A DNA stretch of 63,985 bases, filler included, from Ionaspis alba (lineage: Eukaryota), in NCBI GenBank assembly GCA_964255285.1. It is 4 parts of 4 records of this genome, joined end to end, with 100 filler letters (N's around TTAATTAATTAA, not from the genome) between each part and the next. Parts side by side here need not be neighbours in the genome. Positions count along the whole stretch, not along the records: positions 16,692 to 33,199 come from CAXUUL010000345.1; 3 more parts are not named here. One strand, 5' to 3'. Within the stretch, counting starts at the first letter, position 1; every line of letters starts with the position of its first letter. A model generated the notes under the pieces. It did no database searches and was not told the DNA's origin. It was given only the letters and a program-made list of their open reading frames with translations. A program made the translations under genes and the position numbers. Below, in pieces: positions 22,447 to 33,199 of the stretch.

Positions 22447-22985
22447 CCGATTTAGCTCAGCAAGCAAGAGATGTCATGATAGCTTGGGTTGGAGACGACT
22501 CATGCAGCAAGTCCCATCCAGTTAGAAATAGACAACATAAAAAATAGCATACAGGAAGATTATTGCAGTTCTGTGGTCCTTTGAACGCTAGAAAAGATTA
22601 TTATGGTAGACTTTTCGCTCAGCTATGTTGATTAGATTCGCCCTTGCGCCTATGATGTTGCGCCCCACGTTATTTCATCAGCCAGTTTCCGCGGTGACAA
22701 TATATCAACCACAGCCACTCCACTCACATCTTCTGACACCGGTCGACAGCAATCCAGACCAACACCTCCAATCGTAGGTAGATTGAGAACTTCCGAGACA
22801 GTGTAGGTATAGTGGCCCAAGCCCCTTTGTTGTGCTGGTCATCCTCTAGTCACACATCGTGACACCGCATCTTGTTGTGACTAGTGCTCCGCTCTACCTC
22901 GAAATTCATGCAATGCATAATCTCTCTTTACAAAAGGCTGACAAGAATTCCCAGCACATCCTCTGACCCGAAGCACTTGGACCAG

Positions 22986-23590
22986 ATGCCAGACCCGCCT
23001 GTTCAGGGTCCCAAAGGATCATCTAAGGCTCAGAAGAGGAAGGTCAAAGCGATCCAAGCAAAGATCAACGAACTGCAGACAAAGATAAGTGAACTAGAAA
23101 TAAAGATCAGGGCCAATGAAACAGACCAATCCGAACTTCGACATCTCCGCTATCACGAAAACTGGACCACAACAGCACTATGTTACAGTCTTCTTGACCT
23201 GGGACATCAGACTTGGCATGGGCCAAACGGCTACCCTGAGGGTTACCACGAAGGTTTCAAGGAAGCTGCTGTTGACATAAGAGGAGACTATGACGATATC
23301 TGCAAAGCACTGGACGCTAAAAAAACAAACGGAGAAAAGTTGTGCGAGGAGGTGAGATGAAGACATGGAAATAGTACACCACATCAGCAGTGCTAATGAA
23401 CATCTAGAAGAAGCGCTGTGAGGCTGAGATTACGACTCTCGTTGAGAAGATGCATGAGGCCCCAGCTCAGAACGCAGATTCAGGGAATGCAGCGGAGAAC
23501 ATGCCAGGGGAATCAGCAGTGGGAGCAGCCAATAGTAGCGAAAACTTGGAACACGAGATGGAACAATTGAAGCTCGGAACTGGCTCCTGA
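22986..23590 (+). CDS. Hypothetical coiled-coil protein, 2 exons
   Basis: ORF with heptad-like KINELQTKISELEIKI. A GTGAGA...GCTAAT...TAG intron (~23353-23407) continues in frame to TGA at 23590. Confidence 0.55.
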
Positions 23591-23658
23591 GTATTCCTAG
23601 GTACTCTCCTAAGATCCTGTTGTATGTACAGATCACACTACCACAAAGAGTAAGAAAT

Positions 23659-24112
23659 TCAATTACTCCTTGCTCCTCCTCTGGCCGCTCTTAGCTCTTC
23701 CTGCTTTACAACCCTCCTTGTGTATTCTGCAAATTGACACTTCTCGTAACCATGTCTCTCCTCCTGTTGGCAAGACTCATTAAATATGACTGATATGACA
23801 TGAGGCTAGAACAACATACCTCACACTTCCACGGCAAATAGTACTCCTTGACCCGACAACGATTAAGAGGGATGAGGAGGTGGGCACAACTATCTCTGTA
23901 GGCTAGGGGCAACCGCGCGTCTGACATCTCTTCTCTCGTGGCAGCTGTGATGAATACATGTCAATTTATTGGGCAGTTTCCCGGCATTGATTGAATAAGG
24001 CAATCGTATGCGACCAAATGCAGTGTGCTAAACGTAGTGATAAGTGTTCCTTACGAGTCTGAGCTCCCCCGTCCATTCCAATTGCATGTTTGACAGTTTC
24101 TGTAACCGTCAT
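23659..24112 (-). CDS. NDUFB7: NADH:ubiquinone oxidoreductase B18 subunit (NDUFB7), 3 exons
   Basis: ATREEMSDARLPLAYRDSCAHLLIPLNRCRVKEYYLPWKCE|EERHGYEKCQF twin CX9C pattern. Confidence 0.92.
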
Positions 24113-24237
24113 GATGCCTGATCAACGAGTGCTATGGTGGCATGCAAATGCTGCTAGCTTTGATAGAGCATCCGTCGTTCATGTTTCGGCAATTGACGGA
24201 AAGGACGCTAATCCACAAATGGATCGAATCCTACTCT

Positions 24238-24262
24238 ACGCGTCCGTTAACCGGCGTCGCGT
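24238..24262. promoter_or_regulatory. Putative MCB (MluI cell-cycle box) elements
   Basis: ACGCGT at 24238-24243 and TCGCGT at 24257-24262, in the divergent NDUFB7/Mbp1 promoter. Confidence 0.4.
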
Positions 24263-24503
24263 CTTTCGATTTCAAAGTCAGGCGCTCGGAGGCACAAAAC
24301 CCTAAGGCGCCCTCCCTACCGCACAATTCCACATTCAGAATCATGGAGATAGCACCAACTCAGTGACCGCTGGAACAAAGCTATTCAGGCGCGCTTTGTC
24401 GAATTCCAAGTGTGAGCGTTCCAGGATCGTTCGGCATCTCGCTACTCTGCAGCGCTTACGACACAGCGGTGCGCCGTTGTATTCAAAGAATACCCCCACC
24501 AAT

Positions 24504-26701
24504 ATGCCTCCTGGTCAAATCGTCGAGCAGGATGGTCCGGTATACTCTGCAACTTACAGCAATGTAAGTTCTTTGCGATCGCTCATTGAAAAAACGGTGC
24601 TCAAAATGCGCTAATTCCAATGTCCAACAAATTTTAGGTCCCGGTCTATGAGTTCCTCTACTCTCCAAATGACCAGATCATGCGGCGTCGACATGACGAC
24701 TGGATCAATGCAACTCACATCCTCAAAGCCGCCGATTATGACAAGCCAGCCCGTACTAGAATCCTAGAACGTGAAGTCCAGAAAGGTGTTCATGAGAAGG
24801 TGCAAGGAGGTTATGGCAAATACCAAGGTGAGCGTCCACCATATAGCGTCCTTCGCTGCATGTTAATTCCCATCTTCAAGGTACCTGGGTGCCTCTAGAA
24901 CAAGGAGAGAAGCTCGCTCGCAAGAATGGTGTTTATGAGCTTTTGAAACCGATCTTCTCCTTCGTGCCAGGCTCCAATACTCCTCCACCCGCGCCAAAGC
25001 ATAAGACAGCAGCTTCAAACAAGCCCAAGCTTCCCAGAACTGCTCCTTCGCGTAAAAACGCCAGTACGTGGTCCTTACTTGCAATGCATCTACTCAGCTT
25101 GCTAATCAGCAGATCCTAAACCAGTACCTAACTCTCGACACATGCACGAAGAGGACTATGAAGACACAAGCCAGATTCTCGAAGAGGACACTCCTGACAA
25201 CTCTACCATTGTATCCGAGTCAATGATTGACGATGAAGAGTGTGTTCCCCGAGGTCAATACTCTGCATCTCGAAAGCGTAAGCGTATGCCAGAGCAGCCA
25301 AATGGAGTTTCCAAGGAGGATCAAGACCACGGAGCTTATGCAGACGCCTTGTTGGACTACTTCATGCTTCACGATGCAGAACCGCAGTATGCGAATCTCC
25401 GTCCACCGACGCCACCGACGCCTTTCCAGGTTGACAAAGCCATCGATAGTCAAGGCCATACAGCACTTCACTGGGCAGCTGCCATGGGAGAGGTTGACAT
25501 TGTCCGAGACCTGTTGAATCGTGGAGCGAGCAAAGACGCTCGAAACCTTCGTGGCGAGACTCCTCTCATCCGAGCCAGCCTCTTCGCCAACTGCTACGAG
25601 CGCGATTGCTTCACAAAGATGGTTCACCTCTTCAGTGACACTATCGCTATCGCAGACAACTATAATGGTACTGTGTTTCACCATGTAGCTTACACAGCTC
25701 ACGGCTCCTCCAAGACTCAGCGTGCTCGTCACTACCTTAACGTGCTTTTGAATAGGCTTCGTGAAACTCAGGACCCACTCCAAGTCGCTAGTTGCCTCGA
25801 TATTCAAGATCACCGTGGTGACACTGCTCTTCACATCGCAGCCCGCCACTCCAAACGCTGTCTACGCGCTTTCCAGGGCGTCGGTTGCTCCAGCGACATC
25901 AAGAACCAGAACGGCGAAACAGTGGATCAGTATCTCCGCGATCGAGCAAAGCAGAAGAGAAGCGATCAGCTTCCGTTCTCATCATCACCTATTCAGCCAG
26001 AAGCCGAAACTCCCACCGGGCGTGACACCGTCACTAAAGCCAGCGGAATCTTCTCACTCTCGGGAGACACATTCCAAGCTCAAGCTGCACGCTCCTTCTC
26101 GGAATCCTTCACCGCAATCAACGAGAAAGCTCTAGAATTCGTGCAAGCCGGCGAAGCTGAGTTCGAAGAGAAAGCCACTGCTCTCTCGGAAGCGATGCGT
26201 CTGCTCCAGAAGGCCACGACCGAGCGAAACGCTGTCAGGCTGAAGACTTTGGAACTCACTGCGACCATGGAAGATGAGGATATGGCTCTTCTGCAAGAAG
26301 AAGCCGATATCCTCACTCGTGAGGCTGAGGCCATTCAGGAACAGAAACAGCACCGTCAACTCCATACTTTGGTCCGAACTGAAGAGGACAAGGCTGCTTC
26401 GCGTGGTCATGGCAATGGCGCTAGCAACGAAGAGGAGATGAGTGCTAAGATTACGGCTGCGCATGCTTTGAGTACCGTACAGAAACAAAGGCGCGAGTTG
26501 ACTAAAGAGGTTGTTCGCTGCCAGGGTGATGAGGGCATGACTGAGGCGGGCGAAGGCCTTGTGAGATTACTCGCTACTGCTATCGGTGTGCCTGTTCAGA
26601 GTATTCCGGGTCTTGCTGATGATGTACTCGAGGAGTTGGAGACTGTCAGGAGTGAGGGCTTGGCAACGGCTGCTACGCCTGTGGGTCTTGTGGTTGAGTA
26701 G
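24504..26701 (+). CDS. MBP1: MBF/SBF G1/S transcription factor (APSES + ankyrin repeats), Mbp1/Res2-like, 4 exons
   Basis: [14 protein letters not shown]...[17 protein letters not shown]...[30 protein letters not shown]. Ankyrins [26 protein letters not shown]. Coiled-coil tail. Confidence 0.9.
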
Positions 26702-26842
26702 TGCTTTGCTGGTGATACCCCGTGGCTCTGACTGGGGCTTGTATGTTGTGGATATGGTTTTCGACCACGGTTCTTATCTGTTCAGATTCTGTTCGGATTC
26801 TGTTGGATACGCGACGAATGTCTTGTGTTACAGTACTGAGCT

Positions 26843-26942
26843 NNNNNNNNNNNNNNNNNNNNNNNNNNNNNNNNNNNNNNNNNNNNNNNNNNNNNNNNNN
26901 NNNNNNNNNNNNNNNNNNNNNNNNNNNNNNNNNNNNNNNNNN
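26843..26942. other. 100-N scaffold gap flanked by an exact 55-bp duplication
   Basis: 26788-26842 is identical to 26943-26997. Confidence 0.95.
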
Positions 26943-27486
26943 TCTGTTCGGATTCTGTTGGATACGCGACGAATGTCTTGTGTTACAGTACTGAGCTGTA
27001 CGATTGCTGTTGGGTACTGTGCCACCACTGTATCAGATGGAAGCTGAGTATTATGTCTCAGTCTCATCTGATGTACTTCCTGCCGAAGCGATTGAGGCTT
27101 CTTGCATCTTGACTACGGTCAGAGGTGAGGCTAATGATGTACTCATTACCTGATAGGTAGCAACATAGAAATGAATCACTGTGCAATGAACACTTGGGTT
27201 GGTCGTTATCAGAGTAATTCAATTGTCTCTAAACAAGGCCCATATCAAGCCGTATGACAATTGAGAGAAGTCGTCTCATCGACGTCTATGAAAATTTGTG
27301 AGAAGTAGTTGAACCACGACTAGACCATGTATGTCGGCTCATGTCTAGAGTTTCATCTCATCCAGAGCTTTCTGCACATCCTCTCCCAGGACCAATGCTC
27401 CCACTCCATTAGCCTTGTCAGGTAGTATCTCGCTCTTCTTTGTAGCTTCCTTCATCGCCTTTTCCATCTCAATGATCTACTTACAA

Positions 27487-27900
27487 TCAGCGCTCATTCT
27501 CCTTTTCTTCGTAGGAGTGGAGACTCGCCTCCAAGATAAGCACCTTCTCCCTCCTCTTTACATCACCAAACTCATCTCCCAATTTTCGTAAATCACCCAC
27601 AAGCCATTCTTTCCAATCCGTCATTTCCTGAATGAAACCTTCTTCAGCAGCTGAGTCGTAGGATGTAGATAGATCGTGCTTCATGGTTTCGATTAGAGCT
27701 TGCGTTTTGAGTAGTTCGGTGTGGCGGCTTTCGGAACGGGCGATGTAGAGTGGGATGGTGTCTTGGAGTTTATGCAGGGTAGCACGATGAGAGGCAATGG
27801 TCGGAGGATTGCTGGGTTTTGTGGCGACGTCCGGTGAGGTGGACGATGAGATGAATTGGGGGGAGACGGGTTCAGGTGATAGGGGAGGAGAAGAGGCCAT
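27487..27900 (-). CDS. Hypothetical protein (P/S-rich N-terminus, coiled-coil-like C-terminus)
   Basis: 137-aa ORF from ATG 27900 with protein-like composition. No recognisable domain. Confidence 0.4.
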   Translation of the reverse strand: MASSPPLSPEPVSPQFISSSTSPDVATKPSNPPTIASHRATLHKLQDTIPLYIARSESRHTELLKTQALIETMKHDLSTSYDSAAEEGFIQEMTDWKEWLVGDLRKLGDEFGDVKRREKVLILEASLHSYEEKENER

Positions 27901-28208
27901 TATCTGTGCTGTGCAGTGGGGATTATCAAGTGTATGATGCTGTGGTGGTTCTGTGCTGTTGCTGTTGTTGAAAAAAAGTTTCAACGAGGTCTGTCTATGC
28001 AGTAGTAAAAGAGATCTCGATTCGAGAGAGTAGGTTGCTTCTGAGTCGAGAGTATGAAGAGGAAGAGGTCGAAAGTCGTCATCAAGAGGAGCCTGTGCCG
28101 ATGGAGGTGGTCAAAAGCATGGTCTAGAGAGAGTTGAAAGATACCAAGAGTTGACGTAGGAACCTCCGAGCCAGCCGTCCACCACAGGCCGAAGACAGCC
28201 AAGGGAGT

Positions 28209-29129
28209 TCACTGAGAGGCACTCTCTCGCTGGCTTGCCTCTGCAAGCACCGGCAGCGATCCCTCTCGCCTAGCTTGGTTGTCAAGGCGTTCCTGGGTCA
28301 GTGCCGCGAGATTGAAGGGGCCAGGACTCATGTAGACCGATTCCCTACCACGCGGTGTCTCCACGAAGTGCCTCTGTAGTACCGGCGCCGAGGGACTTCT
28401 TCCTCTGCGACGGGTAGATCTCGATCTCGATCTGGATCTAGATCCAGACCGAGATCGAGATCTTGGTCGTCGAGGCTGTGGTGGGAGCGGCACCATCTCG
28501 AAAGCTGGTTCTCCACGGCTCTTTCGAGGATCTAGTCACGGGGCGGGCTCGCTTAGCTAACCCTGAACGTAAATAGCCCAATAGAACACTTACGCCTGAT
28601 CTTTTTCCACGCCTTCTTGATTGCCTTTTTGGCACGCTTGAAGGCAGATGGGACGGCCGCCCGCTGCACATCTGCGGAGGCGTTGGGGGCGGAGGCGGTC
28701 GTAGACGGGGGCTGCCATGTATTAATTAGATCTTCAAATGACAAGATATGGAGGTAGACTCACGGTGGGGGCCGGGGGAGGAGGCGGCTGCCCTGTGTCA
28801 ACTCAAATGATCAAACGACAAGACAAAATGGTATACTCACGGGAGGGATTGTGGGGCGGGGGGGCTGGACATGCGTCAATTCACGTTATCAAATGGCAGG
28901 AATAGAAGGGTATACTCACGCGAGGCGTCCGAGGACGAGGCGGCTGCTGTATGTTAATATAGATCATGAAAAAGGTAGAATCATATATATATGTATATAC
29001 ACTCACCGCAGGGGTGGGAGGTCTGATCTGGACTGGGCCCTCCGGCTGCGAAAACGACATGGTTGAGCCGTGCGAACGCAGGGGATGGAGACCCGCCATG
29101 GGATGATCAGTCGGTAGCTGTGAGGCCAT
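28209..29129 (-). CDS. Orphan ~211-aa Pro-rich/basic/RS-repeat protein, 6 exons including three 24-nt microexons
   Basis: Exons 29129-29007, 28943(or 28946)-28920, 28864-28841, 28787-28764, 28711-28594, 28531-28209. Donors GTGAGT x4 and GTAAGT, acceptors YAG, introns 52-63 nt. The spliced frame is open from ATG to TGA. Confidence 0.7.
28416..28463. repeat. 48-bp near-perfect palindrome encoding the RS tract
   Basis: AGATCTCGATCTCGATCTGGATCT|AGATCCAGACCGAGATCGAGATCT, one mismatched pair. Confidence 0.9.
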
Positions 29130-29205
29130 CTCGAGACGGTGTTGTGCGTAGGAGGTGGTCGTCAAGGCGTGATAGTCGTGGTGGTGATGAGAGTGAAGGT
29201 TAAGC

Positions 29206-29337
29206 GGGAGACAACAACAGGAGATGCGGGAGACAGCAAAAAGAGATGTGGGAGACAGCAACAAGAGATGTGGGAGACAGCGACAAGAGATGTGAGAGAC
29301 AGCGACAAGAGATGTGGGAGACAGCAACGAGAGATGC
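29206..29337. repeat. Minisatellite, 6 x 22 bp
   Basis: Consensus GGGAGACAGCAACAAGAGATGT, head-to-tail with no spacers, 0-4 substitutions per unit. Confidence 0.93.
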
Positions 29338-29498
29338 GGTTTGCTAAACTTCAGTCCAATTTCGTGCCATTGATGCAAAGCTATTGCAGCCGAATATCAC
29401 GCTTAAACCCTGGGGTATCTCTTGCAAAATAACGCCATGCTGAAGACCGCCGCCGTGCAGTACATACCATCGCAGCCCTAGCAGAAAACCCCCTCGAT

Positions 29499-30996
29499 TT
29501 AGACATCACCAGCGCCACCCTTCACGTCTTTGAGAATCTCATAGCCAAACTCATCCTCGAACTTCTCCGGTTCCATCCCCAACGCATTTCGATACGCCCT
29601 GACCTCGTTCTGCAAGCCAGCGACAACACGGATAGGCATTTCCTCCTCCTCACACCTCAAGCGATAAGCCTCCCTGATCATCTCGACGCTCCTCATGAAC
29701 TTGGCGTGCCAGTCGTCTTTCTCGAGACGGGTGGCCAAGTGTGCATCTTTCTCGTCTTGCAACAGTTTGTTGTAGTCGCGAGAGAGCTGGGCCTTCTCCA
29801 TATTCTTGCCATACGAGAAATTGCGGATCTGCTCGACGATGTTGCCGAGAGAGGTCTCGTATTCGCCAATCAGCTTGGTGTTCTCGCGCTGCTCCCTGAG
29901 GAGAGTTTGCTTGACGTGCTGGAGCTGATTGACTTGACGAGTGAGGTCTGCGATGCGAGCAGCTAGGGAGGTCAGCTGCTGATCACATACTCCCGGCGGC
30001 TCGAAATGGCAGCTAGATTTTCTACATACCAGAGACTTCGTGGTTGGCTTCCTGCAGAGACGGACTTGCTCCATTGGCAGCAGCACGAGTCTGATTACGG
30101 GGAAAGGTCAGCAATGGACAGCTTCACCAATAGCAAGACCGTGGGTGGGCGCGAACATAACAAAAAGCAAGAAATACACTGGAGAACAGAGACTCTACAG
30201 GACGATACGGAAGCATACAAAGAAGTGTACGTGCAATGCTTGAACCACTTACAGCAAGCTCCTCCGCTCCAGCCACAATCCCCTGCGTCCTCTCTCGATT
30301 CTCCTTGAGCAGTTCGCTCAACTCATTCACCTTCTGAAACACCAAATTGAGATCCATCTGCTGTCCCGCATTGACCGGCATCCCCATTCCCATCCCATTC
30401 AAAAGCCCGCCAACACCATTCGGCCCATTGTTGTTTCCCTGCTGCTGAGACAGCGGAGACGGTGCCTGGCGCTGCATGCCGCCACTAGCACCGACATTCT
30501 GGTTCGCGGACGGCCCTTCGAGATAGGATGGGTAGCTGCCGTTCGTGGCATTGAGACTCATGATTCCGGTGCCGTCGACGTTGAGGCCGAGAGCGGTGTT
30601 GATGGCAGGGTAGATGAAATTGTCCGCCAAGATTTCCTCATCCTCCACTTTATTCGCGGAGAGTTTGGGAGGGCGATTGGCTTGGTTGAATCCCTTGGAA
30701 GTGGCTTTGCCGGGATTGTCTTTGTCAGCTGTGGCTGGGTCGTCGGCAGGGGGTCCCTTCGGCTGCCGTGTTGGAACATTGAAAGTTGTGGATCTTTTCT
30801 TCGTCAAGATCTTTGCGATGATGGGCTGGCTTTGACGTCTTCGATGACGGGAGGTTGACTGCTCGAGCTTTCGCAGCAGCTCTGCTGTCAATCTGTGCGA
30901 GTCGCTGGAGCGCCTGGAGTCGCGGGTGGATTCTTGCTGCGGTGGGAATTCTTTGGCGAACTGCTCCCGCAGCTCTGCGAGTGACAGATGATCCAT
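29499..30996 (-). CDS. Coiled-coil protein resembling STRIPAK subunit Far3/SCI1/SipB, 3 exons (start uncertain)
   Basis: QMDLNLVFQKVNELSELLKENRERTQGIVAGAEELA resembles the Far3-type N-terminal helix (recalled). Introns ~30091-30252 and ~29964-30029. Coiled-coil C-terminus. Confidence 0.6.
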
Positions 30997-31200
30997 ACTG
31001 ATTGGCTTATGATGAAGGGCAGATGGATCGAGTTGACTGCTTCGATATTCACACTGTGTTTGCAGTTGCAAGTGGAGTGCGAGTGACCTTGCGTGGTTGT
31101 GAAGTCAGGAGTCTAGCACGATTTCCTTTGTTTACCATTCGCAGCAAAGGGAGACACTACCCAACCCTACCGCGCAATTTTCTATGCTAAAGTACAATAT

Positions 31201-32362
31201 CTACGCCTTTGGCTTTGGCTTGAACAGTGCCGCCTGTGTATCATAGGTATACTTCAGGTCCAGGTGCCAGTAATTCGGCGCGGTAGGCTTAGCCACCAGC
31301 CATGCCTCATCTAACACTTTCACCACCTCTTCCGGAAGAGGTCCTTTCTCCAGATCCTTCAGATTGCTCTCCAACTGGGCGAAGCTACTTACGCCGATGA
31401 TAACGCCATCTCTGCCTCCATTCTTCATATTGAGCGCTGAATGATGCATGCACCATCTAAGAGCAATCTCAAGCAGGGTCAGATTGTGCTTTTGAGCAAC
31501 CGGCTCGATCATGCGGAGAGCGTCGAAGGTGGCATCCTTGAAGTACCGGTCTCGGTAGAGCTTACCGGAGACCGCGGTATCACTATAGCGGCCCTCTGAA
31601 GGGACATCCGACGTCTTGATCTTTCCGCTGAACAAGCCGCCTGCGAGTGGATTGTATACGACGACGTCGATTCCATATCTGTGGCACGCAACAATCGTCT
31701 CCTGCTCCAACGATCGAGCTAAAGAGTGCTATGAGCGAGGCTCTCACTGTGTCACGCATGGGTAACTTACTTATACAGTTATACATGCCCTGATAAATCG
31801 TCGGCCGCACCCATCCCCTCTCAGTGCAAGTGATAACAACCTCCGCGACCTCAAAAGCTGTGAAATTGCTCAATCCCAACTGCACAAACTTCCCCTCCTT
31901 GTGCATCTTATTCACCTCCTCCAATGTCTCTGCAAACGGCACCGATCGATCCGCAGCATGTAAATAGAAGATATCCACACACTTCGTCTTCAACTCCGCC
32001 AATGACTTCTCGAGCATCTCTCTGACGACTGCCGGCTTGTGGTGCCCTGGCTGGGACGGATACCATTTCGTCGCCAATGTCAATCCTCGCTCCTGCCAGT
32101 GGGCTTCCGTGGTCCAGGCTTCTTGTTTTCCACCGACATAAACGCGAGCTGTATCGACTTCGTTGTAGCCTTGCTGCTGGAAGTAGTCGAGGCATTTGTT
32201 GTATTCGTCTAGGGAGGTGATCCGGGCTCCTTTGTCCTCGTCAGGCCCAAAGGTCATGAGACCAAGGATTACCTTGCAAGAAGCTTAGTATCACCCATTG
32301 ATTTGATGAGGCAAAGCAATCTCTCTTACCCTCGGTTTGGGATTCTGCGTCAAGAGAGGCAT
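31201..32362 (-). CDS. Aldo-keto reductase, aflatoxin B1 aldehyde reductase (AKR7)-like, 3 exons
   Basis: ILGLMTFG, EVDTARVY, LATKWYP, DIFYLHAAD, LGLSNF, PTIYQGMYN, VYNPLAGG, IALRW, IIGVSS. Confidence 0.9.
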
Positions 32363-32986
32363 ATTGATTTGGCTTGGGGCACTGGATTTCTAGCTTCGTG
32401 AATCTTGACTTCGCTGTGCCAGATATATAGCAGTAGGATTGCTCTTTATACGTATATTAACGACTTCCTTCTTTACAAAGCACGGATATTGTTAAATATC
32501 GAGTTTACAAAACACGGATTTATTGAGTACGGAGTTTATGGGCAATAGAATGACGTTCGAGGGGTAGTAAAAGCCCCACACTGGATCCCTGCTGGCTGGG
32601 CCGATAGCCGACAAAGTGGCATACCAGCCTGTGTATAGCATTAAAAACCTCCGCCTGGTGTCTTAACGATTTCTTGTCCCGTCAATAAGATTAGATGTTG
32701 AATGCATGCATGTTCAGTCATATGCAAGCTCTTGGCACAGAATACCTTGTTGGAGACAATGGATGTTATGTCCACAAAACAAAAAAACCCAAGAGGCTTC
32801 ATCATAGGCCCTGCAAAGACTTAGATAGTCCAGGTCTCAACGATCAATGTAGAAGCATCTCGCACCTAGCTCCAAGCTCGTCCAATCTAGCCCAGCACCA
32901 CTGCATATATTGCCCCAATCCTCAGAAGTCCATCCCATCCCAAAACCCCCCGGGAACACTCCAGAAACGCCTCCCAGAAATCCAAT

Positions 32987-33199
32987 CTAATTCCTCAATG
33001 CCCTCAACCTATCCCCCAAGCCCTCCTCCTCGACCTCCGTCGGTCCCTGCACCTTAACCGGCGCCTCCGCATTCCGCATCTCCGTCTGCAATTCCACACC
33101 CGCCTCGTCCGCAACCTGATTCATCAGCTTATCGACGTCGTCCTGGGGCGTGCCGACGGCGGTGGCGGAGGAGGTCGCGTTCTCGTAGTAGCCGGTAGC
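32987..33199 (-). CDS. DID2: 3' fragment of ESCRT-III Did2/Vps46 (CHMP1), truncated by the spacer
   Basis: ATGYYENATSSATAVGTPQDDVDKLMNQVADEAGVEL...EEEGLGDRLRALRN*, with a C-terminal MIM1-type motif. Confidence 0.85.
   Translation of the reverse strand, partial: ATGYYENATSSATAVGTPQDDVDKLMNQVADEAGVELQTEMRNAEAPVKVQGPTEVEEEGLGDRLRALRN

Follow-up and report, generated by a model that had tools for sequence, protein, structure and literature searches.

On the minus strand at positions 28209-29129, the DNA of Ionaspis alba that was analysed (63,985 nucleotides in all; hereafter the window) appears to carry a gene in which three microexons of 24 nt lie in a row. At a probability of roughly two in three, as judged from sequence, the gene is real, lineage-specific and mostly spliced with all of its exons included. 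That the locus holds a real, spliced gene at all is highly probable from its sequence.

The gene model and its coding signal

A consensus scan of the minus strand over 28150-29400 returned GTGAGT at 29006, 28919, 28840 and 28763 and GTAAGT at 28593, with no other donor-consensus matches; these are the five donors of the original prediction, at the same positions. Joining the exons (123, 24, 24, 24, 118 and 323 nt) gave a coding length of 633 nt without a stop or frameshift, in a frame open for 211 aa to the TGA at 28211-28209 (212 aa if an extra Q is included). The introns of 52-63 nt, the three phase-0 exons of 24 nt with the peptides proposed for them, and the product of about 211 residues were thereby borne out. 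The model, exon by exon, is as follows.

29007-29129, minus strand: exon 1, 41 codons, opening at the first in-frame ATG; both coding models rank its frame highest of the six
28944-29006, minus strand: intron 1, 63 nt (60 with the proximal AG), phase 0, GTGAGT...TTAAC...CAGCAG
28920-28943, minus strand: microexon 2, 24 nt, phase 0, PPRPRTPR
28865-28919, minus strand: intron 2, 55 nt, GTGAGT...TTGAC...CAG
28841-28864, minus strand: microexon 3, 24 nt, phase 0, PPRPTIPP
28788-28840, minus strand: intron 3, 53 nt, GTGAGT...TTGAC...CAG
28764-28787, minus strand: microexon 4, 24 nt, phase 0, PPPPPAPT
28712-28763, minus strand: intron 4, 52 nt, GTGAGT...CTAAT...CAG
28594-28711, minus strand: exon 5, 118 nt; its best coding frame is the one that the splice model needs
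28532-28593, minus strand: intron 5, 62 nt, phase 1, GTAAGT...CTAAG...TAG; the weakest of the five
28209-28531, minus strand: exon 6, 323 nt, with an RS tract and the TGA stop; best of six frames

Intron 1 contains a TA microsatellite, and the junction of microexons 3 and 4 creates a run of seven prolines.

The proposal of a hidden spliced gene is indirectly supported by this open joined frame and by coding scores. In a codon-position Markov model trained without the locus, the spliced frame scored +31.3 bits as compared with at most +0.8 for any of the other five; training on 355 kb gave +25.9 and at most +1.8. Exons 1, 5 and 6 each scored highest in the frame required by the splice phases, while all five introns had negative coding scores in the three frames of the gene's strand. 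The three microexons taken alone were not best in frame (2.8 as compared with 4.1, 2.9 and, on the other strand, 10.9). Differences between them fell at codon positions 1, 2 and 3 in the proportion 6/8/14 (p 0.050), or 17/18/30 when the end of exon 1 was included (p 0.011), and pS exceeded pN in the gene frame (0.58 and 0.29) while pS was below pN in both other frames; these codon tests comprise 24 columns. GC content was 0.59-0.88 in the exons and 0.27-0.52 in the introns, intron 5 having the value of 0.52.

These data bear on the possibility that the array is a decayed non-coding minisatellite with GTGAGT in its unit, lying between two unrelated open frames that the gene model joins by chance. 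A loose single-microexon pattern had 96 matches genome-wide as compared with 284 for its control, so that the count is uninformative and any one match meaningless. Four donors within 250 nt have a probability of 2e-6 at the window's rate, and about 0.34 such clusters are expected by chance genome-wide; because of this the donor cluster alone is not decisive, and it is the paralogy of the intron interiors, described below, that decides. Against a chance join stand the third-position bias in the correct frame, the GC contrast that tracks the splice sites, the agreement of the best coding frames of the three flanking exons with the splice phases, and the completion of the frame by a fifth, unrelated intron. 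Furthermore, a chain of three among the 96 matches occurs only at this locus. A minisatellite is very improbable.

A second allele was found in contigs of one public run (X1), possibly from the source sample, for which 40 of 57 substitutions were listed; these contigs drop isolated variants. Among the 40, 12 lay in the 308 nt after the stop and none inside the gene, and one changed the stop from TGA to TAA, a stop being kept. In the coiled-coil gene that neighbours the locus, the listed substitutions numbered none in exons and three in the first intron. The X1 contig over 28211-28828 (exons 4-6), which has one further differing letter at an unlisted place, showed a depth of 52 as compared with 71-127 for the seven other listed pieces; the second allele may be missing here instead of identical, and the evidence from alleles is weak. 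No X1 contig covered 28829-28995 (microexons 2-3), where the flanking contigs account in full for the binned depths; in filtered records such a hole proves nothing. The X1 contigs cover intergenic DNA and introns and contain no splice joints. Over 27000-33100 the depths of the two alleles stood in a ratio of about 2:1, and non-coding parts contained clusters in which they differed by up to 10%, which would fit mixed individuals or a heterozygous sample.

Origin of the 24-nt exons and their splice signals

The original prediction held that an exon-plus-intron unit had been duplicated in tandem, and the paralogy of the introns together with the likeness of the 24-nt phase-0 exons supports this. 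Introns 2-4 were mutually paralogous inside their splice signals (z 6.7, 4.4 and 6.3 for the three pairs). Intron 1 gave z 3.5 with intron 4, 1.9 with intron 3 and 0.8 with intron 2, and intron 5 was unrelated to introns 1-4 (z -1.7 to 1.4). Compared with the reference copy, whole repeat units showed identities of 70% and 61%. The duplicated units stood, but they number four and not three, since the array also takes in intron 1 and the 18 nt of exon 1 that precede it.

Those 18 nt matched microexon positions 7-24 at 29 of 54 comparisons (shuffle mean 22.3, p 0.033), whereas exon 5 matched the same positions at 23 of 54 (p 0.46). For the first 6 nt of the microexons, matches to the start of exon 5 numbered 13 of 18 and matches to the end of exon 1 only 6 of 18. 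A chimera joined at 5 or 9 nt gave 43 matches of 72, as compared with 35 and 36 for the single ends, with a join chosen post hoc in C-rich sequence. Three rounds of copying of a segment that joined the end of exon 1, one phase-0 intron and the start of exon 5 would be expected to leave just such exons, with an exon-5-like start and an exon-1-like remainder. That each microexon is such a chimera is plausible, not proved, since the join point was picked after the fact.

The sequence suggests that in the ancestral gene one phase-0 intron separated exon 1 from exon 5. Three tandem duplications, through unequal crossing-over or slippage, would have copied a stretch of about 77-80 nt that took in this intron together with the final 15-19 nt of exon 1 and the initial 5-9 nt of exon 5, every copy giving rise to a new 24-nt exon. 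With an exon length divisible by 3 and an intron in phase 0, each step would have left the frame intact. The intron interiors would then have diverged by about a third, with the donor, branch element and acceptor retained.

Four similar introns close together might also be produced by introner-like elements inserted singly into a proline-rich coding stretch. However, no copy was present elsewhere in the assembly (18.3 Mb in 1282 contigs, possibly incomplete, the scope of all genome-wide pattern counts given here): the intron motif had three matches and the 24-nt doublet pattern two, all of them in the array, with none for either control, and exons 5 and 6 and the array were single-copy. The intron copies share only about two thirds of their positions, and the intervening exons are also alike and of equal length. 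The introner reading is largely refuted and hardly credible. As the intron motif is confined to the array in the 18.3-Mb genome, the array reads as a local tandem duplication and not as an introner family.

A YTRAY-like branch candidate had been proposed for each intron. This was correct for introns 1-4 and failed for intron 5, which has no YTRAY and whose sole candidate, CTAAG, is non-consensus and lies 22 nt from the intron end. The candidates are of TTRAC form, 11-12 nt from the end, in introns 1-3, and CTAAT at 15 nt and TTAAT at 11 nt in intron 4, so that TTRAY is kept at -11/-12 in four of four introns. In intron 3 a nearer CAG, at 28793, is just 6 nt from the branch A. The NAGNAG acceptor of intron 1 had been proposed to add a Q. 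The frame of the 212-residue form is indeed open, but this form is the less likely one because 8 nt separate the branch A from the proximal AG, which falls out of alignment with the sister introns.

Across introns 1-4, eight of nine splice-signal columns were invariant, the exception being a matter of gap placement, as compared with 16 of 44 in the interiors (Fisher p 0.005); with introns 2-4 only, the difference (8 of 9 and 25 of 44) was not significant (p 0.07), and the units in this test had been chosen by their donors. Of 55 heuristic introns from elsewhere in the genome, a noisy set, 4 had a TTRAY at 11-15 nt from the end. A genome-specific splice model yielded two introns at the first attempt and, at the second, these 55, as compared with 53 for a non-consensus control; about half or more of them are false, and the set is a hint only.

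Splicing pattern and predicted product

In the original prediction the symmetry of the modules was taken to allow any subset to be skipped. All seven skip combinations do preserve the frame. This is no evidence of skipping, because viable duplication itself requires frame symmetry. Retention of intron 1 keeps the frame (232 aa), whereas retention of any of introns 2-5 truncates the protein, which ends at 61 aa with intron 2 and at 117 aa with intron 5. As reported for 23 fungi, skipped exons make up 3% and intron retention 61% of alternative-splicing events, and intron definition has been proposed for fungi in the same source (PMC3925392). By analogy with fungal practice, each intron of 52-63 nt would be recognized singly by intron definition, and a failure of splicing would for that reason give retention, not skipping. 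On these published fungal figures (PMC3925392), combinatorial skipping has a low prior.

Frequent or regulated skipping of microexons 2-4 in the same gene would give up to eight isoforms of 187-211 aa. The donors of introns 1-3 would bypass their own TTRAC branch sites, which are the weaker ones, in favour of an acceptor further on, chiefly that of intron 4 (CTAAT), and the 8-residue proline modules would be interchangeable despite the short introns and intron definition. Such a route fits the seven in-frame combinations, the four identical donor hexamers with their paralogous acceptors, and the contrast between the TTRAC form of introns 1-3 and the CTAAT form of intron 4; the microexon variation described for nank of Tuber melanosporum (PMC4986451, PMC10197012) provides a fungal precedent. 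It is opposed by the 3% share of skipped exons in the fungal survey (PMC3925392) and by the occurrence of TTRAY in 4 of the 55 noisy introns. The frame symmetry, being needed for the duplications to survive, is uninformative. In addition, skipping could not adjust the number of canonical SH3 or PPxY motifs, since the microexons have none. We regard combinatorial skipping as quite unlikely. If it did occur, graded branch-site strength would set the ladder and tune the length or valency of a disordered RS protein, in a compact natural model of cassette-exon origin within a lineage that almost never skips exons.

With all exons included, the predicted product of 211 aa is 19% Pro, with a pI of 12 and a net charge of +27, and is predicted to be disordered in 10 of 13 windows. 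It has no hydrophobic segment (best 19-residue hydropathy 0.17) and, by hydropathy, no signal peptide (best 8-residue window near the N-terminus 0.56). An amphipathic basic helix and an RS tract had been anticipated, and both were recovered. Exon 5 ends in a basic amphipathic helix of 17 residues (hydrophobic moment 0.78, shuffle p 0.002), and a single-sequence model (pLDDT 73) gave helix for residues 11-39 of its peptide; seven RS dipeptides lie in residues 128-143. The RS tract is encoded by a 48-nt near-palindrome at 28416-28463, a hexamer repeat that reads RS on both strands, and the tract may be a by-product of this repeat. As RNA, the palindrome folds into a hairpin of -39 kcal/mol, a value calculated with no shuffle control.

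Canonical SH3 ligands are RxxPxxP (class I) and PxxPxR (class II), and a further ligand motif is PPxY. The supposition that the microexons supply SH3/WW-ligand-like motifs was not upheld, as their part of the protein is without RxxPxxP, PxxPxR and PPxY, and the sole PxxPxR is in exon 6. Bare PxxP is frequent in the microexon part, and PPR, T-P and the seven-proline run are present. Composition points only tentatively, at less than even odds, to a nuclear, RNA- or RNP-associated disordered protein. In such a protein the RS tract and basic helix would give import and nucleic-acid binding, and the proline block would be a stiff spacer or a low-affinity docking site. Membrane binding through the helix, again suggested by composition, comes next as the main alternative function.

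The locus, its relatives and known systems

Orphan status, as originally proposed, was upheld within protein, Atlas, Pfam, structure and 38-locus searches, in which the exons served singly as queries; exon 1 was searched against Pfam, the 38 related loci and its own genome as DNA. None of 8000 scored candidates matched exon 6 at E 0.01 among proteins of 187-2000 aa, and none of 22 candidates matched exon 5 among proteins of 71-2000 aa. Among 1.84 billion representatives, exon 6 had one match (E 1.8e-4), a repetitive RS-rich protein that was rejected as compositional. In the Atlas, exon 6 had no usable match and exon 5 reached 0.77 at best; Pfam gave no family for exons 1, 5 and 6, solved structures no relative (best E 2.3), and Rfam two matches far below the gathering score. 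The 38 related loci yielded low-complexity matches only, the best (E 1.6e-5) being the RS tract with an R/S-rich frame. A likeness by eye of exon 6 to an ORF behind MBP1 in two of these loci, L020 and L025 (6 of 13 residues, opposite orientation), was rejected as chance. Within the open-access literature we found no account of such an arrangement of duplicated microexons, whether under microexons in fungi and lichens or under orphan genes at inversion breakpoints.

The coiled-coil gene upstream is conserved and belongs to no Pfam family; its top named relative is a protein of Xylographa opegraphella (80%), followed by those of other lichen fungi, in keeping with a lichen-type ascomycete as host. 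Its first exon (30124-31104, minus strand) may start some 500 nt upstream of the part that most relatives match, the extended 5' portion being open in frame and scoring as coding. In 20 of the 38 related loci this gene is followed by NDUFB7 on the opposite strand, 514-680 nt apart, with no room between them for the microexon gene. In the remaining 18, one has NDUFB7 3.4 kb off in the other orientation and 17, several of them short, are without it in the sequence available. The MBP1-like KilA-N/ankyrin gene comes after NDUFB7 in 10 related loci, followed by phosphomannose isomerase in 8. The 21 NDUFB7-bearing loci represent 12 distinct neighbour peptides, and locus counts are thus not independent. 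In the window, the pair of NDUFB7 and the MBP1-like gene (about 23650-26700) is inverted with respect to the order in related lichen-metagenome loci. The microexon gene sits with a 137-aa ORF at one end of this local inversion, and a 124-aa ORF lies at the opposite end; all three are without family. No orthologue of the microexon gene appeared in the relatives whose DNA was compared. Since these are distant (neighbour identity 44-75%, as against 80-88% for closer relatives by protein), de novo birth, insertion and fast divergence of the microexon gene cannot be told apart from these sequences.

Several further features of the region were recorded. The features first listed are these.

29206-29336, minus strand: pyrimidine-rich 22-nt unit in six copies (period 22, 6.0 copies, 90% matches)
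Related loci: unrelated ORFs behind MBP1, at L020:10086-10691, L025:10080-11381, L015:10188-10794, L018:10176-10775 and L011:8112-9229

The 22-nt repeat lies 77 nt upstream of the ATG and after the end of the neighbour, is unique in the genome, and has three allele differences listed in its last copy; it is possibly a core promoter or 5' UTR element. Because the ORFs behind MBP1 are unrelated and differ between relatives, that interval looks like a turnover site for lineage-specific genes. Just downstream of the microexon gene, the intronless 137-aa ORF (27487-27900, minus strand) is single-copy, has no Pfam family and reaches an in-frame coding score of +31 to +35 bits. Four of the listed changes of the second allele fall within it, two silent and two conservative (S/T, E/D), and it is probably a second orphan gene. 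The 124-aa ORF (22986-23360, plus strand) has a coiled-coil-like start, a coding score of +19 bits and sub-threshold Pfam matches only; a short possible ORF follows at 23393-23590, and three loose 24-nt repeats lie at 22718-22971. A gap of 100 N between MBP1 and the microexon gene (26786-26998), inside one contig record and with duplicated flanks of about 54 nt, is likely an unmerged overlap. In a distant relative, a tandem repeat of four copies with a unit of about 158-167 nt (L037:7058-7600) lies downstream of the neighbour gene.

This setting bears on whether the locus is a once-working gene or a proto-gene of recent origin, in either case silent or neutral today, its frame and splice signals being relics and its protein without a selected role. 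Consistent with such a state are the lack of a homologue in any search, the low-complexity product, the derivation of the RS tract from a hexamer palindrome, the position at a rearrangement end among other family-less ORFs and the high pN between microexons (0.29). Yet donors, TTRAY and CAG are intact in four of four copies whose interiors have diverged by about a third, the 633 coding nucleotides are uninterrupted, and the allelic change at the stop preserves a stop. A relic or proto-gene is unlikely.

The preferred reading of a working, spliced gene can be set beside known systems. SR and SR-related proteins combine an RS tract with an RRM or other RNA-binding domain. The predicted product shares with them an RS dipeptide tract, strong basicity and disorder, but only seven RS fall within its 16-residue tract, and neither an RRM nor another domain was found; an SR protein by domain was rejected on the Pfam results for exons 1, 5 and 6. 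Titin PEVK-type arrays of animals also owe their short, in-frame, proline-rich exons to tandem duplication; in the animal proline-rich arrays, exon definition and long introns prevail and skipping is common, whereas intron definition is expected here.

The Schistosoma MEGs likewise have a run of very short internal exons, in lengths that are multiples of 3, and a lineage-specific product. They are described as 35 genes whose short exons number 10-20 and whose introns span 0.1-5 kb, with isoforms that have been verified and a product that carries a signal peptide (bioRxiv 2023.06.21.545858). The present gene, predicted from sequence, is single-copy with three microexons, introns of 52-63 nt and no signal peptide, and MEG identity was rejected on its few short exons, its short introns and the lack of that peptide. 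The nank (NACHT-ANK) genes of Tuber melanosporum are also ascomycete genes with several in-frame microexons; as described, those exons are 3 nt long and subject to alternative splicing, and the genes form an expanded NLR family (PMC4986451, PMC10197012). In contrast, a single gene with 24-nt exons was found here, and a nank-type identity was rejected on exon length and the lack of NACHT or ankyrin, there being no Pfam family on exons 1, 5 and 6. Fungal introner-like elements resemble the array in that similar introns share a common descent; this identity was rejected because, within the possibly incomplete assembly, the intron copies occur at this locus only.

The closest likeness is to within-gene tandem exon-intron duplication, with which the gene shares paralogous, evenly spaced introns, similar exons between them and a preserved frame; it differs in that the duplication was repeated three times and produced microexons. 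By the figures reported for Zymoseptoria tritici, this route accounts for <1% of single intron gains (PMC4457414). The microexon gene appears to be a case of ordinary tandem exon-intron duplication, a process known and rare in fungi, with a protein for which no relative was found. If its splicing is constitutive, it is an annotation curiosity; if skipping does take place, it offers a small testable system for cassette-exon birth under intron definition. Such genes may be undercounted, since frame-only gene calling misses them. In this gene a rare fungal route to new introns and exons would have been taken three times over, and its sequence still shows the individual steps.
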